The notes beneath the pieces are model-generated. The model made no database searches. It saw only the letters and a list, made by a program, of their open reading frames with translations, and was not told where the DNA came from. Below, in pieces: positions 21,451 to 34,967 of a stretch of 64,000 nt of DNA. This DNA comes from Candidatus Heimdallarchaeota archaeon (GTDB taxonomy: Archaea > Asgardarchaeota > Heimdallarchaeia > Hodarchaeales > Hodarchaeaceae): the NCBI GenBank assembly GCA_020353515.1, contig CP070695.1, positions 2,802,155 to 2,866,154 on the forward strand, read 5' to 3'. A program made the translations under genes and the position numbers. Numbering within the stretch: the first letter of the stretch is position 1; each line of letters begins with the position of its first letter.

Positions 21451-21555
21451 GGCATCATAGCTCAGTTAGGTAGAGCGTCCGGCTGTTAATTTGTATCTCT
21501 TAAAGATTACGATACAGATACCGGGTGGTCGCAGGTTCAAGTCCTGCTGGTGCCG
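21451..21555 (+). tRNA. tRNA-Asn(GTT) with canonical intron 21489-21519
   Basis: GGCATCA/TGGTGCC-G acceptor; TCCGG-CTGTTA|...|A-CCGGG; BHB helix CTGT/ACAG. Confidence 0.94.
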
Positions 21556-21584: not shown

Positions 21585-23444
21585 TCAATCACTTTCTCTT
21601 ATTGTGTGGTTTGACACAACAAAGTTCTCCAAAACAGGCTGAATTGACGTAAAAGGGACTCCTGTTGTAGCAATGAGACTACTGACAAGAATTATATTCA
21701 TTTGATCCAGTTCTTCTATCGAAAAATCTTTATCTGAAAGAAGGATGCTTACAAATTGTGAGGTTAGAAGGGGGAACTCTGGATCATTGAAAGGAACTTT
21801 TTTCAAGACAGTCTTAATATTTTGAATAAATGAAACCCCTAACTCAACAAATTTATTATTTAAAGGTATTTCAAAAAAATCAAAATTGTAAAGGAGTTCT
21901 TCCACCTCAACAGGAGAAGGTTCAAGATCTGATACGAAAATGGCTTCTTTTGTGATCATTTCTAGGTGAAGGGCTAGTCGTTTTTGTTTGAAAACATTAT
22001 CGCTCCGAATTAATCGTTTTACAGTCAATCTAACATCGTGATAGTATTTATCATCACATTGATCACCTAAATAATTAATGGCTTGAAGAAGCGTTAGAAT
22101 TGTTCGTCCAAAATTCTTGATGGCCGTTTGGTGGCCTTGGAAGACATCTTGTCTGAAATCTCGGGAAAGAATCATAATGGATACACGAAGTAAATTTTCA
22201 AAGAAGTGACCGAAGTGGCTATCCTTCGTTTGTTTTATTTCATCAAGAGTTTCTTCTAGCTCTGATATCTCTTCCTGATCTATTGCATATCGCTTCATAG
22301 ATGCTTCTAATTCATCAACATTCCTTTGTTGAATTCCAGCTGGATACTCTCTTTTATGAACATGAGATGCCTTTAAAATCGGAACGATTGCGAGATTTTG
22401 CCTTTCTGGATCTTTTTGCTCTTGATAAATATCTTCGATTAATTCAATAGCCTTAGATAGGTGATAAAACACAAAATCTTCCCCTAAAAGATATTCTAAT
22501 GCTAGGTTAAAGATAGCTCCGAACCATTTTACATGAAAGCTTTTCGAAAATGAAAAGCTGGTCAAAAAAATGTTCTCTATATGCCACATTTCACGAGTAA
22601 TTAGCGAAGGATTAATGTAATACTTATTGAAAATATAATGTTTAAGTTTTCGAGATGGTTCATAATCGATAGAATTTTCCTCTAAGACCATTGCGGGTAG
22701 CCAAACAGGAATGAGAGAAATCGTATAATTGAAGGCTTTCGCAAATTCATTAAGATCTTTGATCTTTATCTCTCCCTTTTGGAATGGAATTTCAAGAACG
22801 GGTGGTGTAATACCCTCTGATTCCTCTATACGAAGTTCAACACTATAGAAATCTACTAGTGGATTGCTTAAACCTCTCTTCATCATCTCCACATTGACAA
22901 AAATATCCTTGAGAGAAAATAGAGCAATTTGTGAAATTTGTTTAAGAAAAGTTATTAGTTCATCTTGATCGAAACTTTCAGGCGGCATAATAGAAGCTAA
23001 ATTAGTGAAAAAATCTAAACTAAAAACTAAGGAGCTCCGTAATCGAACCTCTAAACCACGTTGTCGTTGGATAGAATGGAGAATTTCGTGATAAATTAAT
23101 CCAATGAGTCCATTTCGATGAACAGATTTAAGCAGGGGAGATTCTTTTTCTAATTGAATGAATACAAATTCTGTATCCTTATAACCATACGAAAAAGAAG
23201 TCTGAAAAGGATCTGCAAAAAATCGTTTAAGATCATCAATCTTTTCTTGTGGTAAATCAGTTTTTGTCATATACGAAAGGACTTCAGCTTTGTTTTTAAT
23301 ATCCGAGAAAATCAATGTCAATTGTATTATTGGTTCACAGAGGGTCTTCAACATTGGAGAGGCTAGAATTTCCTCTAGATCATCCTCAATATCCTTAAAA
23401 AAATCTAATAAAACAATATTCAGAGAACTACCTGAATTTATCAT
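21585..23444 (-). CDS. Hypothetical helical protein with HExxH motif (possible Zn-metallopeptidase)
   Basis: 619-aa ORF; GLIYHEILHSIQR followed about 50 aa later by KDIFVN. Confidence 0.6.
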   Translation of the reverse strand: MINSGSSLNIVLLDFFKDIEDDLEEILASPMLKTLCEPIIQLTLIFSDIKNKAEVLSYMTKTDLPQEKIDDLKRFFADPFQTSFSYGYKDTEFVFIQLEKESPLLKSVHRNGLIGLIYHEILHSIQRQRGLEVRLRSSLVFSLDFFTNLASIMPPESFDQDELITFLKQISQIALFSLKDIFVNVEMMKRGLSNPLVDFYSVELRIEESEGITPPVLEIPFQKGEIKIKDLNEFAKAFNYTISLIPVWLPAMVLEENSIDYEPSRKLKHYIFNKYYINPSLITREMWHIENIFLTSFSFSKSFHVKWFGAIFNLALEYLLGEDFVFYHLSKAIELIEDIYQEQKDPERQNLAIVPILKASHVHKREYPAGIQQRNVDELEASMKRYAIDQEEISELEETLDEIKQTKDSHFGHFFENLLRVSIMILSRDFRQDVFQGHQTAIKNFGRTILTLLQAINYLGDQCDDKYYHDVRLTVKRLIRSDNVFKQKRLALHLEMITKEAIFVSDLEPSPVEVEELLYNFDFFEIPLNNKFVELGVSFIQNIKTVLKKVPFNDPEFPLLTSQFVSILLSDKDFSIEELDQMNIILVSSLIATTGVPFTSIQPVLENFVVSNHTIRESD

Positions 23445-23662
23445 AAGTCTTGCTTCCAGAAGATAGATTGTTGATCCAATAAGCTATAAAATGATCTTTA
23501 AAAAAGTCTCTTTCTTTCATCTTCAAACATTTTAATTGATAATAATCTTTATAAAGGGCTTATAAATATTTGAGGATATTTGATTGATAACATCTCACGA
23601 TCTATAAAAAATAGCTTTTGAAACACAGAGGGAACAAATTATCTGGGTTTAGTGAAATTTAA

Positions 23663-25204
23663 ATGGCTTATCAACGCAAAACGTGGAAAAAGTTTATGAA
23701 AACAATATTATCCCAGATTTCTGTCTATATTGAAAATTATTCCCCTTCAGATCAGATCATACTCAATGAATTCATTTCTATTCTACAAAATTACGAAGTT
23801 GATACCCAAGAAGCCCGTCGTCATCTTTTTCAACTTTTTGAGAGTTTCCAGACCAAATATCGTGACAGTGAGAAGTTATTAACTCAACCTTTCCTGTGGT
23901 TTGTTGAGAGTTATTTCACAAACGCCTCTAAATTACTGAGTGTTGCTAGTTTTCATGCGGATGATTTTTATGAATATTTCGTAAAGCAGCTCCGTGGTTA
24001 TCCAGACATAGAGGGAGTCTTTAAACTACTTCAGAAAGGAACACCATTAACAGATCTCAGATGGGAACAGCTTCAATATGCTTGTAATCGTCTTAGCGTT
24101 CCTCTCAAAAGCGAGGAACTTCATGCTCTTGAAACAGTACACAATCTATCTCTGGAAACAGGAATAAATGCTCTAGATCAAAGGTACATAAAGACTAATA
24201 TATTTAACAATGTAAAATCACCTACTCTCTTAAAAAAGATAGAAAATCTCTTTCTAAGATTAGATTCTAGATGGCTCCTTCGGTTTTATACCCCTGCATT
24301 TGACTTGGAGCTACTATTTTTTCAGTTTCAATTAAATAAATCGACTTCTTTGAGAGAAATTATTGATTTTCAAAATCCAAATAACACCACTCTATGCAAT
24401 AGTAGTGTCTATTGGATAAGGGGTTTCCGAAATATGTATTGTGGAATTTTAGTTGTACCTACAAGTTCTATTCTTTCCTTACAAAGATATTTACAAAGAT
24501 GTCACCGTCAAGGTCAAATAGTTCTCTATGAGTTGACAAAAATCATTACTTCTCGATTAAGTGTTTCATTGCTACTCTATCAGACTACTAAAGGGTGGCG
24601 TACTCCAACCCAAACAGATTGGAACAGGTTAGTTCCAATGTTAAAAACTCTGTACCCACGTAAAATGCGCATGAAACTTACATCTTTTTACTTAACACCC
24701 CCATTTAATGAGCTTAAGCTTGATCATCATGATTCCTCTCAACTAATTAGTCTTTTTTGCAAAATTCCTAGACAATTTTCATTTAAAGAATTACCATTAG
24801 GCGCAAATGAAGATCAAATACAGTTCGAACTATCTAAAGCTGATATTAAGCTATTAGAGGAAATATGTCTTCGAAAAATTGTGCAAATCAGTTTTATTTC
24901 TACAAGATTAATCTATGAGTTTTCCCTGGACAATTATTGGATAAAACTTCCCAAAATGCCTCTCAATCAACTTTCAAGGTTATTGGCTTGGATTCCTTTT
25001 TGTCGTCTTTATTTTGCAGAAAAAAATATTTTTATTTGGTCTTATTTAACTCAAGAGTTGGCCCAATGGTTAAGTACAGATCTTGAATGGACTGTTATGC
25101 GAATTATAGAAAATCATACCCCCTTAAGTTTTAGTTTTAATTGGTACACTTCCAAATCTCAACAGTGGAAAACACCTCTCATTTTAACCACCGAGAGGCA
25201 ATAA
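23663..25204 (+). CDS. ~510-aa uncharacterised protein, Lrp/AsnC-like (paralog A)
   Basis: Full-length similarity to 32072-33604 (PFLWF, PD.xGVF.LL, WEQLQ, PAF.L, NTTLCNS, LAW.P, C-terminal W..P.IL). The Lrp-like assignment is inference. Confidence 0.7.
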   Translation: MAYQRKTWKKFMKTILSQISVYIENYSPSDQIILNEFISILQNYEVDTQEARRHLFQLFESFQTKYRDSEKLLTQPFLWFVESYFTNASKLLSVASFHADDFYEYFVKQLRGYPDIEGVFKLLQKGTPLTDLRWEQLQYACNRLSVPLKSEELHALETVHNLSLETGINALDQRYIKTNIFNNVKSPTLLKKIENLFLRLDSRWLLRFYTPAFDLELLFFQFQLNKSTSLREIIDFQNPNNTTLCNSSVYWIRGFRNMYCGILVVPTSSILSLQRYLQRCHRQGQIVLYELTKIITSRLSVSLLLYQTTKGWRTPTQTDWNRLVPMLKTLYPRKMRMKLTSFYLTPPFNELKLDHHDSSQLISLFCKIPRQFSFKELPLGANEDQIQFELSKADIKLLEEICLRKIVQISFISTRLIYEFSLDNYWIKLPKMPLNQLSRLLAWIPFCRLYFAEKNIFIWSYLTQELAQWLSTDLEWTVMRIIENHTPLSFSFNWYTSKSQQWKTPLILTTERQ

Positions 25205-25296
25205 TTACTCAACTAGTGCAATTTAGGAAATGAGAGGAGAAATAAAGGAGAAAGTTTGATCCAAAAATCATGAAGCTACTTTTTAGGATCATTTTC

Positions 25297-25335
25297 CTAT
25301 TGATCTGGGCCAATGCCGCCAGGAGGAGGGGACAC
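25297..25335 (-). CDS. Candidate micro-peptide MSPPPGGIGPDQ
   Basis: GTG start 7 nt after TGAGGT; TATA-like TTATATTAAA upstream; GC-rich patch confined to the ORF; mirrors 33690-33719. Confidence 0.4.
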   Translation of the reverse strand: MSPPPGGIGPDQ

Positions 25336-25438
25336 AATTTTAACCTCATACCTCCACTCCTACAATTTAATATAATCTCCCAACTTTTTTTCCTAGATGA
25401 ATTGCAACAAGTGGAAAAAAATCCAAGATAATCTGTTT

Positions 25439-27619
25439 TTACAGATGAGTTTCAGTTGGATCAAAGACCAGATTTTGATAAGATTCACGTAATCGTTTCT
25501 GTTGAGGAATATCTTGAAGTGTAGTAATATCCATTGAGGATGATGGATCAACAGGGAAATTGTGGGTCTTCATAAGAGAAATTTGACCGTTGATTGAGAG
25601 TAAACAACGTCGCTCATCAGGGTTTGCTTTTAATAAATCACGAAATTTCTCATAGTCAGTTTTAGATATACCAAGTAAGTTAGATATGACATAAGGATCA
25701 AATTTGGTAAAGAAAACAGCCAAAACGCCTGTATTTGTTAATATAGGCTGCTCAACAATCGGATCAGTACCAATGAATATCATTGATATATCATAAGCCC
25801 GTAAGGTCCAAGGACCCTTTGCAATCATTGACTCTGGAGTCCTAGATGGGTAACTTCTAGCAGGAATGAGTTTTTGAATCTCATCGAGAACAAATATATT
25901 CTTTGGAAGGCTACCCTCCTTGAAAGGTGATCGAAAGCTTCGAACAAAATAGTAAATGTATTGCAGGATAACATCTAGAAAGATTTGTCTTCCTCTTTGG
26001 TCTTCCATTGACTCAAACGCTGAAAGGTCAATGATTCCATTCTGATCTAATAATTGGGATAATTCAAAAGTTGTTTTGTGAACAGTAAAACATCTGCCTG
26101 TATTACCAAAGAAGAGTTTTTCAATACGATTCAGAATACCTGCAGCGGTGTTATCGAGATAGGCGCCTTTCATTCCTAATTCATGGGGCATGTTAAGGCA
26201 ATTAAGAAATGTCTGAAAATCCCCCTGATCTTTCACAGTTTGAATGACCGCCAGATGAAGAAGACGACGCATTTGGGGCGAAATCGCATCTGAATCTTCA
26301 AATGTATGTTCAAGAAGAGACACAACAAATTGAATATGATCCTCTATTGGTATAATGCTGTCTCCGTGTTCATTCTTGGGAATTTGGAAGATATTTATCC
26401 CCCAAGGAAATGTAGTAGAACCAGGTTTCAAATAAATTAAATCCTTACAAAAAGATTTAATTGGAGCTAAGTATTCACCTTTGGGATCAAAAATAAGGAA
26501 TTTTACGCCCTTTAGGAGAAATTCCTTGATTAATCCATATACAAAACGACTTTTTCCCTCACCAGTCATACCAAAAACAGCCATATGTCTACTTAGATTC
26601 TTACCATCAATTAGAAGAGGAACATCTGAGGTCTTACCGCTAATAATAGGAATGCCAAGATTAATGGCTTGTAGAGGTGCTGTACTATTAATACCAGAAG
26701 ATAACATATAATCTTCTTTATTTGGGACAAGAGTGTAACCTTCATATGAGAATTGTCGTTGAGGAGGGGAAATTAGACTCATCAATGAATAACCATCTAA
26801 AATCGTAGGAGAAGTTTGTTTTCGTTTTACACAGAGATTTCTAAGGGAAGAAAATCGATGCCAAAAAGTCGGATAGATACACACTTTGAATCCATTAGAG
26901 ATTAATAGAACTGATAATCTATCAAGTTTTAATTGTAGAGCCTTTAGGCTGTTTTCTACAATTATAACTCGCGGTGAGAATTTGAAACAACCAGTTTCTT
27001 CCATAATATTTTTTCTTTGAGGATGAAAACGACGTTCTACTTTTCCTTGTTGAATATCAAATCGAACTTGAGTCAAATGATTTTCTTGTCTTTTATTTGT
27101 CTGATATTCCTTCGGAAGTTTAACAGGTTCGAAAATCAATTGTACAAACGCAAATTGGGGAGATTCTGTTAAAATTTCAAGAAAATCATCTGAAAAACCG
27201 TCAGCTGTTGTAATGGGTTGATCAATTTTATTTTCTAATCCTATTATTCCTCCACAATAGTATTTGGGACCACCTGAACCTAATTGAAACCTGGGCCGAA
27301 GCATTTTTAGTATACTTTGAATAGGAGTTTCTCCTATCTTATGGTAATCAGGATGAAGCCCAAGTTTTGTTGCAAATTGTTGGATAGTTGCGATTCCTCT
27401 TTCAATTCCTTTTTTACGGAACCACTCTTGTGGAAGAGGAATCATCTTGATCCAGACAGTTTTCGGATCAAAAATCGCATATTCTAATGAAAAAGCTTGT
27501 TTAGCATTTTGAAAAACCTTAATGCTAGATTTATCTGCTTTCAGAGGAACCTGGTCAAAATTAAAGGCAGGGATATTCTCAATCATCAGAAACACATCTT
27601 CGTAGTATCTCCCCAACAA
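25439..27619 (-). CDS. HerA/FtsK/VirB4-superfamily ATPase (DUF87) with long N-terminal extension
   Basis: RHMAVFGMTGEGKS; FDPKGEY; FVLDEIQKL. Confidence 0.85.
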   Translation of the reverse strand: MLGRYYEDVFLMIENIPAFNFDQVPLKADKSSIKVFQNAKQAFSLEYAIFDPKTVWIKMIPLPQEWFRKKGIERGIATIQQFATKLGLHPDYHKIGETPIQSILKMLRPRFQLGSGGPKYYCGGIIGLENKIDQPITTADGFSDDFLEILTESPQFAFVQLIFEPVKLPKEYQTNKRQENHLTQVRFDIQQGKVERRFHPQRKNIMEETGCFKFSPRVIIVENSLKALQLKLDRLSVLLISNGFKVCIYPTFWHRFSSLRNLCVKRKQTSPTILDGYSLMSLISPPQRQFSYEGYTLVPNKEDYMLSSGINSTAPLQAINLGIPIISGKTSDVPLLIDGKNLSRHMAVFGMTGEGKSRFVYGLIKEFLLKGVKFLIFDPKGEYLAPIKSFCKDLIYLKPGSTTFPWGINIFQIPKNEHGDSIIPIEDHIQFVVSLLEHTFEDSDAISPQMRRLLHLAVIQTVKDQGDFQTFLNCLNMPHELGMKGAYLDNTAAGILNRIEKLFFGNTGRCFTVHKTTFELSQLLDQNGIIDLSAFESMEDQRGRQIFLDVILQYIYYFVRSFRSPFKEGSLPKNIFVLDEIQKLIPARSYPSRTPESMIAKGPWTLRAYDISMIFIGTDPIVEQPILTNTGVLAVFFTKFDPYVISNLLGISKTDYEKFRDLLKANPDERRCLLSINGQISLMKTHNFPVDPSSSMDITTLQDIPQQKRLRESYQNLVFDPTETHL

Positions 27620-27674
27620 ATATTGATCTAATGTTTATTTACTCACAAAAATAAAAAAAATCTTGGAATACAGT

Positions 27675-27965
27675 TTATTCTTCACACAAATTAATATAAT
27701 TCTGACGTATTTTGTGGATATTCTCCCATGATACTTCCTCTTCTACAGGTAGTTTATTTATCAAATCCAAAATCGTCTTTAAAAGCTGATTAATAGGAAT
27801 TTTTTTCATATTTTCAATTGATTTGAATTCTATTGGCTTTATTGAATATATTTTCTTGATACTGAGGTTTTTTCGTAGATTCTTTTGTTTAGGTAACAAT
27901 AACTGGACTGAATTCAAAATTACCACGTCAATAACTTCAAAAGAAAGAAGAATATAATTACCCAA
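27675..27965 (-). CDS. Hypothetical protein or gene remnant
   Basis: 96-aa ORF with no recognisable motif; interrupted acidic coding-like sequence upstream. Confidence 0.3.
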   Translation of the reverse strand: MGNYILLSFEVIDVVILNSVQLLLPKQKNLRKNLSIKKIYSIKPIEFKSIENMKKIPINQLLKTILDLINKLPVEEEVSWENIHKIRQNYINLCEE

Positions 27966-28055
27966 AAATCACAATTCGAGTTTTGATTCTACAATTTCCT
28001 CTTCTATCTCCTCTTCAGTTTCAATTCATTTTATCTTCCATTTCATCATCCATTT

Positions 28056-29021
28056 CTACTTCATTTTTTGGATAATGAATTTGGCGAATTTCTCACTTTG
28101 TTCATAATCCATTGGATAAGGGAACATAATCTGGAAATAATCAAATCCAAGGTCAATAAGATTTTCAAATCCTTGTTGAACAACCTCTGGTGTACCAAAG
28201 AACACGTTAAGGTTATTAATGGACTTCATATATTCCGTAAGTGTTAGGCCCCTTAATTTCGCTCTTTCAGCTAAAATGGTGTCTAATTCATCCTGTGTTT
28301 CAGTAACAATAACTGATGCAAAGAATGATTTCCCGAGAGAATCATAATCACGATTTACTTTTTCGCAATGGTACTTCAAAGCATCTAACAGCTCAGGAAT
28401 GGCTTTTGGATCATTAAACCATCCGAAATTACAATAATCGGCATATTTAGCAACCATATTCAGAATTCTCTTCTTTCCCGTTCCTCCTATAAAAATTGGT
28501 GGTAAACGTTGTATAGGTTTAGGAGCTGAAAAAGCTTCTTTAATTTGGTAGTGTTTTCCATGAAAAGTTACCATAGGATCCACCCACAATTTCTTGATAA
28601 TCTGGATAGATTCTTCTAATTGATCCATACGATCTTTAACAGAGGGAAATGGTATTCCATAGGCGTTATATTCGATTTCCTTCCATCCTGCTCCGATCCC
28701 AAATTCTAATCTTCCATTCGAAATCATGTCAACAGTGGCAGCTATTTTTGCTAGGATTGCTGGATAACGATAACTATTACATGTAACAAGTGTTCCAAGA
28801 CGTAGAGTGCTAGTCTTTGCAGCTAAAGCTGCTAATAGTGTCCATGCTTCCATACAGTTTTTTTCTTCTGACTTTTGGTCTAGAAAAAAATGATCACTAG
28901 ACCAGATAGAGTAAAAACCTATTTTTTCAGCATTTAAAGCAATTTTTTCTACAGTAGCATAATCAAATCCTAGTTGAGGTTCAATTTGTATACCAAAACG
29001 AATAATCATTAATTCCACCAA
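28056..29021 (-). CDS. LLM-class F420-dependent oxidoreductase
   Basis: WSSDHF, EAWTLLAALAA, RLGTLV, GRLEFGIGAGW and PPIFIGG motifs. Confidence 0.93.
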   Translation of the reverse strand: MVELMIIRFGIQIEPQLGFDYATVEKIALNAEKIGFYSIWSSDHFFLDQKSEEKNCMEAWTLLAALAAKTSTLRLGTLVTCNSYRYPAILAKIAATVDMISNGRLEFGIGAGWKEIEYNAYGIPFPSVKDRMDQLEESIQIIKKLWVDPMVTFHGKHYQIKEAFSAPKPIQRLPPIFIGGTGKKRILNMVAKYADYCNFGWFNDPKAIPELLDALKYHCEKVNRDYDSLGKSFFASVIVTETQDELDTILAERAKLRGLTLTEYMKSINNLNVFFGTPEVVQQGFENLIDLGFDYFQIMFPYPMDYEQSEKFAKFIIQKMK

Positions 29022-29699
29022 TCCAGAGGAATATAAACAACTTATTTATCATCTTATTCTAGGTCATTCTAGTCATATTTTACAAATATTCGAATTCAAA
29101 GAATTAAAATGAATTTCATTGATCTTACTCATATTTTTGAGGATAGAATGCCAGGACTTAAACTGAAAAATGAAAATGGTTCGGATACTGTATATACAGC
29201 AAAAATCTATCCATTCTTAACACATAAAGAAATAAAACCAAGACTGCCTTACAAATGCCTTAATTCCACCATTTCATTTGTAAATTAAATTCTCTTCTCC
29301 TAACAATCCGTCATAAAACATAGAAAAACGGAACAAGATTCTATTTATCACCTAGGATAAGGAATTCTTGGAAATTTTCCCCTCCCAGGATGAATGTTAA
29401 AAACTGGGAGGGACTAGATAAAGTAGAAGTTCCACTAGGACATGTTCACAATTTTGACTATAAAAGCAAAGCTAGATAATCAGGAGTAGATGTTAAGATT
29501 ATTACTATAAAAGTGGAAAAAAATGATTAAAATTGAAAATATGGAAGAAGAAAGACTTATTTTCAATATCATCACTCCTGATACCCCAAAGCGAATTAAA
29601 AAGAAGCTTTATGATGCGATTGAAGACTTTGAAGAAAAACGATCAATTTAGAATTACTAATATTTGAATTAGTGATGTTAAACTTCTCAAAGGTACCCA

Positions 29700-31811
29700 T
29701 CACTGCTTTAGTCCAACTGAGTCCAGAATAAAAGCATAGTAAAACGCTGCTTCTTTCATGGCGTCGTAACGCCCCGATTTTCCAGAGTGTCCTTCCCCCA
29801 TATTGGTTTTTAAGAGTAATAAATTTGAATCTGCTTTTAATGCTCGTAATTTTGCCGTCCATTTAGCTGGCTCCCAATACTGGACACGTGGATCATTCAA
29901 ACCAGCTGTTAATAGCATTCTTGGATATTTTTGCTTGCTAACATTGTCATACGGAGAGTATGATTTCATATAATCATAACATTCCTTATCATTAGGATTT
30001 CCCCATTCGTCGTATTCAGTTACTGTCAAAGGGATTGAGGGGTCAAACATTGTATTGATAACGTCAACGAATGGCACTCTAGCCACAACTGCTTTGAATA
30101 GATCCGGCCTCATGTTAGTGACTGCTCCCACCAACAAACCTCCCGCGCTCACTCCCAATATGCATAACCTATCGGGTGAGGTATATCCCTCATTAATTAA
30201 ATGGTTAGCACAGGTGATGAAATCTGTGAATGAATTTTTTTTATGCAAAAGCCTCCCGTCTTCATACCACTTTCGACCAAGTTCGCTTCCACCGCGAATA
30301 TGTGCTATTGCAAAGATGAACCCTCTATCCAATAAACTTATTCTATATGATAAAAATTCTGGATCAATACTGTAACCGTATGAACCATAACCGTAAAGTA
30401 GAAGAGGATTTCTTCCGTCTAAATGAATATTTTTCTTATGAACTAACGAAATTTGGACCAATTGGCCATCCATTGCTTGAGCTGTAATTCGTTCAGTGTG
30501 ATAATTTGCCTGATCATAACCTCCCAATATCTCATCTTGTTTTACTAAATTTCTTTTTCTTGTGTCCATATTAAAGTCGAAAACAGAATTAGGAGTCACC
30601 AGTGAGGTATAAGTAAAGCGTAGTAAATTGGATTTGAATTCTGGATGAACAAGAGTATCTAGGGGTTTTTCACAAGTATAAACGAGGTCAGGAAAATCCA
30701 CACAATAATCTTCATTCCTTTTTTGATTGATTATTCTAATCCTGGGCAAACCATTCTCCCTTTCATGAAACACATGAAAGTTCTCAAAGACCTCAAAATC
30801 CCTCAAAAAAACTGATTCACGGTGAGATATGAGTTCTGTCCAATTCTCTTTTTTCGGATTTGTTACGGAGGTCTTCATAATTCTAAAGTTTTTAGCTGCA
30901 TCATTAGTCCTGATGATAAAATTCTCTTTTTGGTGTTCAATATAGTACTCCATTCCTGGTTGTCGAGGGTGAATTATTGTGAAGTCTCCATCAGGTTCCT
31001 TAACAGGTAAGAAATGTACTTCCGTTGTGACATTACTTTGGAGAGTCATAAGGAAGTATTCTTGATCTCTTGATTTCGTTAAATATAGAAAATAAGCTTT
31101 ATCTTTTTCATGATAAATTAATCGATCTTCTTTAGGATCAGATCCAATTTCATGACGGAATAATTTATAAGGCCTTTTAGTTTCGTCTAAGGTCGCATAA
31201 AGAAAGGATTTATTATCATTGGTCCATTCTAAACTGGATAAGCCTATCCCAAAGGAGTACCCGTAGGCAGTATTTGTGATTCTGTCATCTAGGATTTTAT
31301 TGTTTTTCAAATCTTTAATAAAGACTGTAAATTCTTCAGATCCGTTCACATCAACAGAATAAGCCAGAAATTCGTGATTTGGACTCACTTTGAATGATCC
31401 AATCTTGAAATAATCATGATCAGTAGCTAGTTCATTCTCATCCAGAAGTAACTCTTCTACAAGATCTTCATCAATATTCTTTCGAAAATATTTCTTATAT
31501 TGTTTTCCTTTCTCCATACGGAAATAATACTGATATTCCCTTGCTTTTACTGGAGCTGAAACATCGTCTTCTTTAATACGACTTTTTAATTCTTCAAAAA
31601 GACGATCTTGTAGCTTCTCAGTGTGCTCCATCATCGTTTTGGTGTATTTATTTTCAGCTTTAAGATAGTCAATTACTTCTAGATTGTCTTTTTCTCTTAA
31701 CCAGTAATAGTTATCGATTAGCTCTTCTCCATGGTAAATAAATCTTTTAGGTATTTTTTTGGCGATTGGAGGTTTTAAATCAATATTTGAAGTCATGGTT
31801 AGGACATCCAT
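29700..31811 (-). CDS. ptrB: S9A serine peptidase, oligopeptidase B-like
   Basis: DNYYWLR; GYGSYG; HIRGG; nucleophile GVSAGG; EYDEWGNP; DPRV; GH. Confidence 0.93.
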   Translation of the reverse strand: MDVLTMTSNIDLKPPIAKKIPKRFIYHGEELIDNYYWLREKDNLEVIDYLKAENKYTKTMMEHTEKLQDRLFEELKSRIKEDDVSAPVKAREYQYYFRMEKGKQYKKYFRKNIDEDLVEELLLDENELATDHDYFKIGSFKVSPNHEFLAYSVDVNGSEEFTVFIKDLKNNKILDDRITNTAYGYSFGIGLSSLEWTNDNKSFLYATLDETKRPYKLFRHEIGSDPKEDRLIYHEKDKAYFLYLTKSRDQEYFLMTLQSNVTTEVHFLPVKEPDGDFTIIHPRQPGMEYYIEHQKENFIIRTNDAAKNFRIMKTSVTNPKKENWTELISHRESVFLRDFEVFENFHVFHERENGLPRIRIINQKRNEDYCVDFPDLVYTCEKPLDTLVHPEFKSNLLRFTYTSLVTPNSVFDFNMDTRKRNLVKQDEILGGYDQANYHTERITAQAMDGQLVQISLVHKKNIHLDGRNPLLLYGYGSYGYSIDPEFLSYRISLLDRGFIFAIAHIRGGSELGRKWYEDGRLLHKKNSFTDFITCANHLINEGYTSPDRLCILGVSAGGLLVGAVTNMRPDLFKAVVARVPFVDVINTMFDPSIPLTVTEYDEWGNPNDKECYDYMKSYSPYDNVSKQKYPRMLLTAGLNDPRVQYWEPAKWTAKLRALKADSNLLLLKTNMGEGHSGKSGRYDAMKEAAFYYAFILDSVGLKQ

Positions 31812-31922
31812 TAGCGACTCAGAAGAAAATTACCTTTTTATGGACCATTTCAATAATTTTGAGATAGGTTATGAAAGAGTTTTGGATGAATCACAGTAAT
31901 TACCTAAAAAAAAAATTCACAA

Positions 31923-31952
31923 TTCAATAGATCTATTGAAGGCTTTATAAAG
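31923..31952. promoter_or_regulatory. Perfect 18-bp palindrome TTCAATAGATCTATTGAA plus palindrome CTTTATAAAG in the ptrB/paralog B divergent promoter
   Basis: Read directly. A degenerate second copy (CCAATAGATCCATTTG) lies near 32000. Confidence 0.5.
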
Positions 31953-32071
31953 GATTTTTAAGGATAAAAATATTTATAAAAGAAATCATATTGAACACCA
32001 ATAGATCCATTTGAAAAGCCTAATTTCTAGTCTGAACAATTCGAAATGACAATTTAGGGGTAGTTCTCATC

Positions 32072-33604
32072 ATGATTAATGATGTACCTCAAGGACGTGA
32101 CAGTTTGAAACGGATTATTCAGACCGTAATCGACTACCTCCCAGAAATCATAAAAAATTACCCTCCGAAGGATCAACTTCTTCTTAATGATTTTCTATCT
32201 GTTCTTCAACATTATTCAGAAGCAGATAATCAGCGAGAAAGACTTTCAAAGCGTTTTGAATTGTATCGAAGTAAAAATTATTTAACTGATCTATATTTTC
32301 AACTCCCCTTTCTGTGGTTTGCTCACGATTATTTTGCAAATGCAAATCTCATCCTTAATCTCGCTGAATTCCATGGAACACGATTTTATGAATATTTAGC
32401 TCGTTCTTTACGTCGTAATCCTGATGTACAAGGAGTTTTCCCACTCCTACGTCAGATGACTCCTCTTTCAGACCCCAAATGGGAACAGCTTCAGATAATC
32501 CAAGCTCGGATTAAAATTCAATTAACTGATGAGCAATTACAGATAATAAAAGAGAGTTATACTGCTCTTCGCGAACTTGGAATCCAAGGTTTAAATAGTC
32601 GGGTTTTGTACAATTTTGTTAAAAAAAGCGATATTTCACTAAATACTAAATCTCTTTCCAAATTTTTCACATTACTTGATTCTCAATGGAACATTTGGTT
32701 TTATCCACCCGCATTTGGCTTAAAACAACTATATTTTAACTTTAAATTGACTAAAACCTCTTTAAATGAAATTTTCGATTTTAAAGACAGTTTTAATACT
32801 ACATTGTGTAATAGTCGGGTGTATCGCAGTAGAAATTTTCCAAACCAATTTTCTGGGTATTTAGAAATTCCACATGAAGGATTAAATGATTTAGTGGATT
32901 ACATTCAGAATTATGCTGATCAAGGGAACCTGAAAATTTTCGAATTATCCGAAGTAACTGACCTTCGAGTAAGTGCCTCGTTTAATCTTTATCATTCAGG
33001 GGTAGGATGGACTGAAATCCTTCCAGGAGGAATAAAAAGATCAATTCTACCATTAAAAAGCAATCACCCACGAAAACTTCTAAACGAAAAGCCTTTTTTC
33101 CTTTCTCCTGCCTTTAATCATGAATGGAACTTCTTACAGTCTCCTGATCCCAGACGATCCATACGTATTTTTTGTCAATATAAACCCCAAATCTACAATT
33201 TTAATGCCCTGCAATTCGGTTCTGCCTCAAATCAAAGAGTATTCATGGAGGATTTTGGTTTGATAAAATATTTTCATCGAAAAATGGTTTGTACAAATTT
33301 GATCTTTATGGCCAACTTGATCTATAATTTCTCACCTGACTTCTATGAAATAGTTATGCCTATCATCCCAATTGAACGTCTAAATTTAATATTAGCATGG
33401 CTCCCATACTCACGTATTCTCTTTACAACGAAAAAAATCCATTTATGGACCTTTTTGCCAACACAAATATTAGAGTGGATGAAAAAAGAATTTTCTTCCT
33501 GGGAGTTTCGCCTATGTATATCACATCATTATTCTCCAGAACCAGATCCGTCATGGTTCGATTTTGACTCGTTAAAATGGTTACTCCCCCGAATTTTATC
33601 ATAA
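32072..33604 (+). CDS. ~510-aa uncharacterised protein, Lrp/AsnC-like (paralog B)
   Basis: Paralog of 23663-25204; YPPAFGLKQLYFNFK resembles the Lrp linker into the RAM domain. Confidence 0.7.
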   Translation: MINDVPQGRDSLKRIIQTVIDYLPEIIKNYPPKDQLLLNDFLSVLQHYSEADNQRERLSKRFELYRSKNYLTDLYFQLPFLWFAHDYFANANLILNLAEFHGTRFYEYLARSLRRNPDVQGVFPLLRQMTPLSDPKWEQLQIIQARIKIQLTDEQLQIIKESYTALRELGIQGLNSRVLYNFVKKSDISLNTKSLSKFFTLLDSQWNIWFYPPAFGLKQLYFNFKLTKTSLNEIFDFKDSFNTTLCNSRVYRSRNFPNQFSGYLEIPHEGLNDLVDYIQNYADQGNLKIFELSEVTDLRVSASFNLYHSGVGWTEILPGGIKRSILPLKSNHPRKLLNEKPFFLSPAFNHEWNFLQSPDPRRSIRIFCQYKPQIYNFNALQFGSASNQRVFMEDFGLIKYFHRKMVCTNLIFMANLIYNFSPDFYEIVMPIIPIERLNLILAWLPYSRILFTTKKIHLWTFLPTQILEWMKKEFSSWEFRLCISHHYSPEPDPSWFDFDSLKWLLPRILS

Positions 33605-33689
33605 AACCATCTTTCAAATTCAAAAAAAGAAAGGAAAGAGTAATCCTGATTTTATAATCAAGATTATTGATCTTCATTCAATTCAACAT

Positions 33690-33719
33690 TTAAGGTTGTA
33701 ATGGCTCATTTGGGGGCAT
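33690..33719 (-). CDS. Candidate micro-peptide MPPNEPLQP
   Basis: ATG preceded by a strong GGGTGAGG RBS and an upstream ATTAAAAG box; mirrors 25297-25335. Confidence 0.45.
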   Translation of the reverse strand: MPPNEPLQP

Positions 33720-33951
33720 CTTCTATGACCTCACCCTTCTAAGCAACCGATCAACTTTTAATCACATGAAAAAAAACTAGAGAAAGTCTTTGATATTCAT
33801 CTCACCCCAATCGGTTATAATATCACCCAGCTTTCTAAAGAGATAATTGAAAATGACGAATCTGGTTATTACATTCTAGATTTAACTGCATATAGTACTT
33901 CTAATATAAAAAAACCCCAAAATGCATTCATACTATTGGGGAATTTGTAGT

Positions 33952-34344
33952 TCATTCTGGAAGTAGAGGGAGTAGAAGGGAAAGGTAAATACCTTGAGCC
34001 ACTAAAGAAATGATTAAAGCGAAAAAGAAGCTTAATAGAGTCCCAATAAGATAATATTCCGCAAATTGGCGTTCTTCTAATTGTTTAAATCGAGCCATGG
34101 ATTTCGCGACGAAAACAAAGGAAATAGCACCAAATTCTCCCAGTAAACCCAGTGTCAGGATAATTCCTCTTTCTAACATACCAATTATTTTTCCTGCACC
34201 AGGTAAACCTTTTTCGGATGAAGTTTCAAGGGAAATCCTAAGAGATTTCAAGAATAACTCTACAAAAAGTCCGCCAACAACAATAGCAATGAAATACACA
34301 CAAATATAATAACCACAGAGAAGTAGTAACGGTACCCAGCTCAT
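33952..34344 (-). CDS. SatD-associated membrane protein (DUF3307-like C-terminal part)
   Basis: AGKIIGMLER...AKSMARF...AEYYLIGTLLS; its start overlaps the satD stop. Confidence 0.85.
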   Translation of the reverse strand: MSWVPLLLLCGYYICVYFIAIVVGGLFVELFLKSLRISLETSSEKGLPGAGKIIGMLERGIILTLGLLGEFGAISFVFVAKSMARFKQLEERQFAEYYLIGTLLSFFFALIISLVAQGIYLSLLLPLLPE

Positions 34345-34967
34345 TAGAGATCATCCTTAAAATATACGAAAAAAGTATTTGTTAAGTCATTCAGCGTTTC
34401 AATGGCTAAGAAAACAGCTTTCGACTGTGTGTATTTAAGAATTTTGGAGACTGCTTGCTTACTTATCCCTTTCTTAATTCCAATTTCTTTCAAGGTCATT
34501 CCTTCCTGTCTAAGATAAATAATCTCTCGTTGGTGAGCATTCCATCTAGTTTTAGTTGCATATAACAACGTTAAGAGAGTGTTCACCATCCTATCGAAAT
34601 GTGTATTCCCAGATTGAATCCAAGCAGAGTAATGCCCTTTCTTTGCGATGTTGAGCGCTTCTTGGGAGCGATGAAATGCTAAGCCATCCATTTCCAAGGT
34701 ATTTGGAGAGAATTCGGTAGAAATTTCCCCAATTCCCACTCCACATCGAAAATCAATGGAAATCAGCTGCTCAAACGTGTCTAAAATGTTGTAGAATCCA
34801 TCAAGGGATTTCAATGCCCCCTGAAAGGAATCACCCCATACTGTAGTAAAAGGGCATAAAAGTTCATTTGGGTATTTCTCATTGACGACATTCACCGCAT
34901 TCTTTAATTCTTGTTGAACTTTAAATCTTTCTTGAACTTTTTTAGAATGAATAAGATCACAGGTCAT
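34344..34967 (-). CDS. satD: SatD family protein (cyclase-like domain + C-terminal HTH)
   Basis: DLIHSK, GDSFQG, RCGVGIG, MDGLAFH and HTH GISKQAVSK. Confidence 0.9.
   Translation of the reverse strand: MTCDLIHSKKVQERFKVQQELKNAVNVVNEKYPNELLCPFTTVWGDSFQGALKSLDGFYNILDTFEQLISIDFRCGVGIGEISTEFSPNTLEMDGLAFHRSQEALNIAKKGHYSAWIQSGNTHFDRMVNTLLTLLYATKTRWNAHQREIIYLRQEGMTLKEIGIKKGISKQAVSKILKYTQSKAVFLAIETLNDLTNTFFVYFKDDL

Follow-up and report, generated by a model that had tools for sequence, protein, structure and literature searches.

A putative two-gene module of fused double-Lrp-like genes and proline-rich micro-ORFs in Asgard archaea

Two Paralogous Genes, Each Faced by a Proline-Rich Micro-ORF

The sequence examined here, a stretch of 64,000 nt from the genome of a Candidatus Heimdallarchaeota archaeon (contig CP070695.1, positions 2,802,155 to 2,866,154; hereafter the window), contains two copies of a cassette in which a gene for a protein of around 510 amino acids (aa) is faced, past its stop codon and on the opposite strand, by a tiny proline-rich open reading frame (micro-ORF). 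The comparisons described below strongly support that both cassettes represent one conserved module of two genes, the first coding for a fused double-Lrp protein and the second being a Pro-rich micro-gene that is autonomous and translated. The two large genes, which the original prediction had already recognized as paralogs, are open frames on the plus strand: paralog A (23663–25204) codes for 513 aa, with a predicted helical N-terminal domain (residues 1–140) followed by two fused modules of a winged helix-turn-helix (wHTH) and a RAM-like domain, and paralog B (32072–33604) codes for 510 aa and has, by homology to paralog A, the same predicted architecture. Their products are 36% identical from end to end (E = 3e-99). 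The host genome is a single contig of 4.94 Mb that holds four copies of the gene in total, the third starting approximately 400 nt beyond the end of the window and the fourth lying 2.5 Mb away (genome coordinates 325976–327514). We rejected a mobile element as an explanation for this multiplicity because the copies inside one genome are around 35% identical to each other and because copy A resides in a conserved chromosomal context. The window sequence is represented in nine DNA runs of sediment metagenomes from five studies, and in no listed RNA run.

Micro-ORF A (25297–25335, minus strand) starts with GTG and not with ATG (GTG-TCC-CCT-CCT-CCT...) and reads MSPPPGGIGPDQ up to its stop codon, and micro-ORF B (33690–33719, minus strand) starts with ATG-CCC-CCA... 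and reads MPPNEPLQP, also followed by a stop codon. These are the convergent, Pro-rich frames that had been reported from the minus strand, but the spacers separating them from the stop of the large gene, originally counted as 93 and 86 nt, are each one nucleotide shorter (92 nt for A and 85 nt for B). The claim that each micro-ORF has its own ribosome-binding site and TATA-like box agrees with the motifs located at both loci. For micro-ORF A (signals in 25336–25380, minus strand), a Shine-Dalgarno (SD)-like TGAGGT ends 8 nt 5′ of the start codon, with a G-rich element and a TATA-like sequence (attatattaaa) some 31–41 nt upstream; for micro-ORF B (33720–33765, minus strand), there is an SD-like GGTGAGGT and a TATA-like tgattaaaag. 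A run of five T (25263–25267, minus strand), situated 30 nt past micro-ORF A, is a weak candidate for a terminator, and a run of seven T (33622–33628, minus strand), which lies 61 nt past micro-ORF B, at 17 nt from where paralog B stops, is a likely one.

Orthologs of micro-ORF A from five genomes hold the frame, reading MSPPLRGAGPDQ, MSPPPGGTGPYQ, MSPPPGGPGPKE, MSPPPEGGLPK and MCPPGPGSLPNS, and exchange GTG and ATG as start codons. The two further paralogs from the host genome are likewise followed, in each case 52 nt past the stop, by convergent micro-ORFs (MPPQEPGPGW and MPPKDPGGIN), such that a convergent micro-ORF of 9–12 codons with an M(S)PP start accompanies all four copies of the large gene. 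Among the 135 ORFs of up to 20 codons starting with MPP in the genome, only MPPNEPLQP, MPPQEPGPGW and MPPKDPGGIN match the pattern MPPx[DE]P. A scan of the host genome for Pro/Gly-rich micro-ORFs (SD, 9–13 codons, and two consecutive prolines, PP, at residues 2–4) retrieved none that did not adjoin a paralog.

The Large Protein Is Predicted to Contain Two Fused Lrp-Like Units

Neither paralog matched any Pfam or NCBIfam profile at E ≤0.01. The AlphaFold2 model of paralog A, derived from an alignment of 64 sequences, had a mean predicted local distance difference test (pLDDT) of 94 and a predicted template modeling score (pTM) of 0.91, and comprises a helical domain (residues 1–140), a wHTH (~145–204), an alpha/beta domain (205–305), and a second wHTH-like plus alpha/beta unit (~355–500). 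The single clear match in the PDB was the siroheme decarboxylase NirDL (4czc), over residues 150–513 (Foldseek E = 4e-5; VIA-align Z of 12.0 with 270 residues aligned), the next VIA-align match in the PDB having a Z of 7.8. The Lrp/AsnC regulator 2p5v matches one of the modules (Z of 5.7, residues 145–307), and the neighbors by shape in the ESM Atlas, with TM scores of 0.5–0.7, are archaeal proteins containing HTH_24 or HTH_AsnC. This confident model suggests that the 510-aa protein consists of two fused Lrp/AsnC-like units, forming an intramolecular pseudo-dimer like that of NirDL. The designation of these proteins as Lrp-like therefore holds at the level of the fold, and for a fused double module, but has no counterpart at the profile level; the structure prediction that had been proposed as a check for wHTH and RAM domains returned two modules of this kind.

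Conservation along the protein is uneven: the N-terminal domain is the best-conserved part and contains many conserved aromatic residues, and conservation is lowest in the two wHTH regions. With regard to DNA binding, which along with binding of an amino-acid effector is characteristic of Lrp/AsnC regulators, the first wHTH has a computed net charge of +2.7 and the second one of +0.8.

The Micro-ORF Is Present Across the 510-aa Family

An exhaustive, profile-free search yielded 159 cluster representatives, mostly of around 510 aa. The family is present in all the 21 other genomes of the genus to which the window belongs and in none of 62 genomes from other genera of the same class, with one to ten copies per genome that are often clustered; one of the homologs is labeled Candidatus Hodarchaeales. 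We retrieved 73 family loci (designated L001–L073), 72 of which, from 21 genomes, had sufficient downstream sequence, and defined a micro-ORF as a convergent frame of 9–16 codons with PP at residues 2–5. Such a frame occurs downstream of 56 of the 72 members. As controls, an equivalent ORF on the same strand as the large gene was found in only one of the 72, and in 58 of the 3,099 3′ flanks (1.9%) of other ORFs of ≥200 aa from the host genome. It should be borne in mind that related genomes are not independent samples.

The 16 members lacking a micro-ORF belong mostly to three orthologous subgroups, which have instead a co-directional gene downstream. In the protein tree, micro-ORFs appear in every major clade, including the deepest, and five to seven losses are needed to account for their distribution. 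The peptides differ among paralogs and track the protein clades; a chance origin is untenable because many old paralog lineages carry entirely different peptides.

As a separate observation, L005, L007, L008 and other orthologs are listed with one in-frame stop codon (TAG, TGA or TAA) within the match, which may be real or come from alignment overhang. Additionally, visual inspection identified a fragment resembling 23S rRNA (GTACGAGAGGAACGGG... or its reverse complement) downstream of L014 and upstream of L028 and L035, in three genomes, which could be an artifact of contig edges or reflect a paralog situated beside an rRNA operon.

Anatomy of the Micro-Gene and Selection on Its Reading Frame

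The micro-ORFs share a constant arrangement. Their length is 10–12 codons in 53 of the 56 loci, and an SD-like (T)GAGGT or GGTGA ends 6–11 nt 5′ of the start codon. Further upstream lie a G-rich element and a TATA-like box, whose center precedes TGAGGT by 24–26.5 nt in 31 of 44 loci. This spacing is the canonical distance between the TATA box and the transcription start in archaea, and the predicted 5′ end of the micro-gene RNA is thus the G of GAGGT. A run of 6–10 T follows the micro-ORF in 53 of the 56 loci, at a median of 38 nt past the stop codon and usually no more than 40 nt away from where the large gene stops; measured from the micro-ORF stop, the position of this run is concentrated at 32–41 nt (27 of 53 loci).

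Other candidate features of the micro-gene were not sustained. There were no Rfam matches at the micro-ORFs, folding of the predicted transcripts gave no signal of structured RNA (median z of −0.3), and no conserved alternative RNA structures were found at the micro-genes. A hairpin sequestering the SD was considered, since a G-run could pair with the C-run of ATGCCCCC, and was dropped because this G-run sits upstream of the predicted transcription start. A programmed +1 frameshift at CCC-C was also discarded, the +1 frame having no conserved stop position. A search with a regular-expression motif for a promoter-specific operator matched 11 of the 56 promoters and had 60 matches in the genome.

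Several lines of evidence bear on translation. Start, frame and length are retained across the 56 loci in spite of widely different sequences, and the third base of the two fixed Pro codons varies freely. Likewise, comparison of L062 and L066 revealed seven synonymous changes at third positions, no amino acid changes, and an indel of one codon that keeps the frame. Together with the micro-ORFs from a second lineage (see below), these patterns strongly support, from sequence comparison, that the micro-ORF frame is selected as a translated sequence. The original prediction had staked its case on homologs having convergent micro-ORFs above background and on orthologous loci conserving the peptides; it withstands both comparisons, because the micro-ORFs are family-wide (56 of 72, vs. 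1 of 72 and 1.9% in the controls), conserved, and show coding constraint.

A Distant 575-aa Family With Its Own Pro-Rich Micro-ORFs

A profile search over 301 Asgard genomes for relatives from outside the genus retrieved weak relatives, including a family of proteins of around 575 aa that every one of the 19 genomes from another family-level lineage contains. The 510-aa and 575-aa families are homologs that align over almost their full length (434 columns, 13% identity), with an hhalign probability of 96.8% and an E of 2.7e-10. The model of the 575-aa family is also of tandem Lrp-like modules, matching NirDL with a Z of 14.8 (Foldseek E = 2e-7) and many Lrp/AsnC regulators with a Z of 7–9 and a Foldseek probability of 1.00 (2dbb, 8q90, 1ri7 and 2cg4, Z of 7.5–9.1); its matches to sequence profiles are limited to sub-threshold hits to MarR/HTH_24.

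Genes of the 575-aa family occur as co-directional pairs (loci L102–L131), each with its own type of micro-ORF. The first gene of the pair is followed, on the same strand, by M[YW]PP[RS][RH]P[ED]P[FH], of 10–12 codons and with a GGAGGC SD, which is sometimes duplicated in tandem; the second gene is followed by a convergent micro-ORF, MYP[PAQ]R[DP]PFP[SC]. In these micro-ORFs the residues are kept while the codons vary (TAC/TAT, CCC/CCT/CCA, CGT/CGA/CGC/AGG, and GAT/GAC) and, for instance, L108 and L114 differ by three synonymous and no non-synonymous changes. Since the residues remain constant while the codons change, the micro-ORFs from this lineage are under purifying selection at the peptide level. 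The flanks retrieved for two other distantly related families, of 497 and 602 aa, contained no Pro-rich micro-ORF.

The N-terminal domain of the 575-aa proteins (residues 3–204) resembles the catalytic domains of zincins, matching the M1 aminopeptidases F3, APN, PSA, and LTA4H (Z of 8.4–9.1 over ~170 residues) and, to a lesser extent, thermolysin (Z of 6.9). It holds most of the residues that are invariant in the family and lacks an HExxH motif, having the consensus WREAxL; the spacing between RFGaxE and WREAxL resembles that between GAMEN and HExxH in M1 peptidases. On the basis of its modeled fold, this domain may be a dead peptidase.

Neighboring Genes and Promoters

A double TATA-like box (approximately cTTTATAAgagcTATATAAg) lies 100–130 nt upstream of most genes of the 510-aa family, which implies long leaders or a shared operator. 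In the window (upstream regions 23445–23662 and 31812–32071), the first half of this box is CTTTATAAAG, at positions 23547–23556 for paralog A and 31943–31952 for paralog B, and this sequence occurs exactly twice in the window vs. 0.23 times expected. It had been described as a palindrome shared by both promoters and it is indeed present in both, but corresponds to the double box common to the family and not to a special operator.

Upstream of paralog A, and on the minus strand, is a gene for a 619-aa protein of no known family that contains the motif HEILH (21585–23444), and downstream of paralog A, beyond micro-ORF A, there is a gene for a HerA/FtsK-like ATPase (25439–27619, minus strand). 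Both genes are a conserved flank of the orthologs of copy A only: they flank it in 10 genomes, with 71–82% identity, while the enclosed double-Lrp gene is 44–75% identical. The flanks of copy A are, then, a case of conserved synteny of one locus and do not represent a rule for the family. A second copy of the HerA/FtsK-like ATPase gene, with 66% identity, is located at genome coordinates 3167160–3169295.

Paralog B adjoins, on the minus strand, a gene for an S9A peptidase (prolyl oligopeptidase/oligopeptidase B-like; 29700–31811), whose identity, already proposed from the sequence, was confirmed by Pfam. For the protein upstream of paralog A, which had been considered peptidase-like from its HExxH motif, the motif is present as HEILH but there was no match to any peptidase family; additionally, this protein had no relative by sequence in the PDB and no clear family in the ESM Atlas, and showed no similarity to the 575-aa family. 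The suggested link between the module and peptidases did not survive the comparison of loci, because the S9 peptidase occurs only at copy B of the host genome and the HExxH protein only at the orthologs of copy A. We consequently discarded peptidases as parts of the module. No transporter was conserved beside it either.

Other features were observed in the vicinity. A gene for a SatD-family protein with a C-terminal HTH similar to sigma-70 region 4 (34344–34967, minus strand) precedes micro-ORF B on that strand and has no evident link to the module. A tRNA at window positions 21451–21555 (plus strand) was detected with Rfam (56.9 bits) and missed by ARAGORN; this program predicted only 15 tRNAs in the whole genome, the likely reason being the presence of intron-bearing tRNAs.

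Discussion

The large proteins described here combine features of two groups of known proteins. As in Lrp/AsnC regulators, each half of the 510- and 575-aa proteins consists of a wHTH followed by a RAM-like alpha/beta domain, with a Z of 5.7–9.1 vs. single-module regulators. However, Lrp/AsnC regulators are single modules of ~150 aa that assemble as dimers or octamers, whereas here two modules are fused in a chain of 510–575 aa, and the 510-aa family has no Pfam or NCBIfam profile match. In the siroheme decarboxylase NirDL/AhbAB two Lrp-like modules are also packed as a pseudo-dimer (Z of 12.0 and 14.8 over 270–281 residues), but the 510-aa paralogs have no profile match and no heme or d1 biosynthesis context, the neighbors being genes for an ATPase, a peptidase, a luciferase-like oxidoreductase, and SatD. 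The extra N-terminal domain of 140–200 residues is a difference from both groups. To our knowledge, no Lrp/AsnC protein has been found paired with a micro-peptide gene.

The module has been kept through many duplications and in two lineages. Our preferred explanation, which we advance tentatively from the sequence comparisons, is that the decapeptide might be the cognate partner of the adjacent regulator, acting as its ligand, being its regulated product, or both. The first gene would code for the ~510-aa protein, with its helical N-terminal domain and two wHTH plus RAM-like units, and the second, on the opposite strand and 20–200 nt past the stop of the first, would be an autonomous transcription unit of ~95 nt, whose anatomy is seen in the sequence and whose transcript is predicted. 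Transcription directed by the G-rich element and the TATA-like box would begin ~25 nt further on, at a TG initiator, producing an RNA that starts with the SD-like GAGGT. This RNA would contain a frame of 10–12 codons, with M(x)PP and a tail rich in Pro, Gly, and Asp, and would end at the oligo-T run near the stop of the first gene. The peptide could then bind the sensor or the RAM-like part of the regulator, or the regulator could control the promoter of the peptide, or both could occur, and the outcome would be a set of paralog-specific circuits of peptide and regulator.

A role of the peptide as cognate partner of the regulator is hinted at by selection at the peptide level, the fixed length and paralog-specific sequence of the peptides, the existence of tandem duplicates, the occurrence of micro-ORFs in both orientations, and the possibility that the N-terminal domain binds peptides. 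The arrangement is also reminiscent of the RRNPP cassettes from Bacillota and their phages, especially Rgg/SHP, in that a tiny peptide gene lies beside a regulator gene, in pairs that are paralog-specific and include convergent ones; indeed, the shp gene is arranged convergently in Rgg/SHP pairs. Nevertheless, RRNPP receptors have TPR domains and not a helical domain followed by tandem wHTH plus RAM-like units in an archaeal host, and their ligands derive from a pro-peptide that is exported and re-imported, whereas here 9–13 hydrophilic residues without a signal sequence would be made directly.

Diverse observations weigh against this explanation. The 9–13 hydrophilic residues of the peptides leave no space for an export signal, so that nothing indicates cell-to-cell signaling in the style of RRNPP. 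The likeness of the N-terminal domain of the 575-aa family to M1 peptidases is at the fold level only: the alignment of this family with M1 domains using hhalign was not significant, the best local match being RFGaxE vs. FGAME, and the dead-peptidase reading consequently stays at that level. Fifteen of the members lacking a micro-ORF still hold every strongly conserved residue of the protein. Selection on the tail of the peptide is also loose within the genus, since 14 independent close pairs accumulated 27 synonymous vs. 50 non-synonymous codon changes, indicating that much of the tail evolves almost freely; moreover, the micro-ORF is no better conserved between orthologous pairs (0.74) than the promoter and leader (0.73–0.75). 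The composition of the tail after PP is of 26% Gly, 21% Pro, 9% Asp, 6% Asn, and 10% hydrophobic residues, with Pro and Gly adding up to 47%. Finally, the first Pro of PP is encoded by the rare codon CCC in 37 of 55 micro-ORFs from the genus (67%) and in 21 of 27 from the second family (78%); of all Pro codons in the genome, CCC makes up 15%, and from the second Pro onward the micro-ORFs follow the usage of the genome. A role as a free peptide does not account for this preference for CCC. The CCC bias, the Pro/Gly/Asp tail, and the retention of residues in members without micro-ORF point to a role at the level of translation.

These latter features are the core of a second explanation, which we consider rather unlikely, by which the micro-ORF would be a cis-acting sensor based on ribosome stalling. 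Translation of the PP start and the Pro/Gly/Asp tail would be slow unless aIF5A, or charged tRNA-Pro and tRNA-Gly, were ample and, depending on where on the short RNA the ribosome is located, transcription would either end at the oligo-T run or continue into the Lrp-like gene, the peptide itself having no function. The read-through would be antisense in this genus and sense for the upstream micro-ORF of the second lineage. A sensor of this type fits with the universal presence of PP at residues 2–4, with the preference of both distant families for the rare CCC specifically as their first Pro codon, and with a tail rich in Pro, Gly, Asp, and Asn that evolves fast while retaining its length and composition; such tails resemble the stalling motifs that depend on eIF5A or EF-P. 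It would also accommodate the concentration of the distance between stop and T run at 32–41 nt in half of the loci (27 of 53), the orientation toward an Lrp-like gene of all the micro-ORFs examined in both lineages, and the conservation of protein residues in members devoid of micro-ORF. Precedents exist in Salmonella, where the Pro codons of mgtL and mgtP, two leader ORFs that are rich in Pro, report the supply of proline or the activity of EF-P through ribosome pausing.

The resemblance to mgtL and mgtP, however, ends with the short Pro-rich ORF, because these are located in 5′ leaders with alternative hairpins, whereas the micro-ORFs reported here are convergent, are followed by oligo-T, and have no conserved alternative structures. 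With respect to position, the micro-ORFs are convergent at 56 of 56 loci from the genus, and only one of the two types from the second family is leader-like. Other results are also difficult to reconcile with a stalling sensor: in 53 of the 56 loci the micro-ORF and its target gene are separated by a run of 6–10 T, and the read-through is purely hypothetical; there is purifying selection on residues other than Pro (aromatic, Arg and acidic) in the second family; tandem duplicates of the micro-ORF exist; and no other gene from the host genome has a device of this kind. A hybrid is possible, in which the output of peptide reports the translation capacity of the cell and is read by the regulator.

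We deem improbable a third explanation, by which the micro-gene would be a strongly translated RNA toxin with proline codons, similar to CreT, that arrests translation when de-repressed, with the double-Lrp protein as its repressor, the pair constituting an addiction or abortive-defense module. There is a published precedent, since a pair of consecutive Pro codons in a mini-ORF led by an SD is enough to cause bacteriostatic toxicity (preprint, bioRxiv 10.64898/2026.06.02.729485), and CreT from the CreTA system of Pseudomonas aeruginosa is, as the micro-ORFs are, an SD-led mini-ORF that contains a pair of adjacent Pro codons, close to the start in our case, and lies beside a repressor (bioRxiv 10.64898/2026.06.02.729485). 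The tight linkage to a protein that is, from its model, of a DNA-binding type, and a family that is multicopy, fast-evolving and restricted to the genus, with clustered copies, would also suit a toxin. Nevertheless, the ORF of CreT spans 15 nt, its PP immediately precedes the stop codon, and CreT requires a stabilizing, GC-rich hairpin, is located in a CRISPR-Cas locus and is repressed by Cascade-CreA, whereas the micro-ORFs have 10–12 codons, a selected tail and no conserved hairpin, and neighbor a gene for a protein regulator. Likewise, CRISPR arrays are absent from the window, PADLOC gave no defense match for the core proteins or the genes around them save for weak ones of the HerA type, no cas genes were matched among the neighbors in the window and the retrieved flanks, and copy A occupies a stable, conserved chromosomal context in 10 genomes.

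It is highly improbable that the micro-ORFs are chance frames within a conserved non-coding element (an operator, a terminator, or a small RNA located at the 3′ terminus of the large gene), as could be proposed from their tiny size and from a nucleotide conservation close to that of their flanks, because start, frame and length are constant across 56 widely differing loci, synonymous and codon-family changes preserve the residues, with one indel in frame, there is neither an RNA structure signal nor an Rfam match, and a like ORF is found, in both orientations, beside a family of 13% identity.

Our survey of the literature on small ORFs and peptide-sensing regulators from Asgard and other archaea did not retrieve any published description of a module of a double-Lrp gene and a Pro-rich micro-gene, and we know of no peptide-regulator pair, proline-stalling sensor or proline-codon toxin described in Asgard archaea. 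These archaea are the closest prokaryotic relatives of eukaryotes. A gene of 10–12 codons has been kept beside members of one superfamily in two lineages whose proteins are ~13% identical, which implies that the functional coupling is real and old. If the peptides were ligands, Asgard archaea would possess their own peptide-sensing transcription circuits, in which leaderless, ribosomally made Pro-rich decapeptides are read by paralog-specific double-Lrp regulators, with a dead M1-like sensor in one of the lineages; that such circuits exist, independent of RRNPP and the first in archaea, is a proposal that we regard as somewhat doubtful. Being compact, the module lends itself to direct testing, by translation in vitro and with synthetic peptides and the purified protein. 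It may represent the peptide ligand of an Lrp-type sensor, a translation sensor dependent on aIF5A or proline, or a stalling toxin guarded by a regulator, and it shows a whole class of genes in Asgard genomes to be missed by standard annotation.

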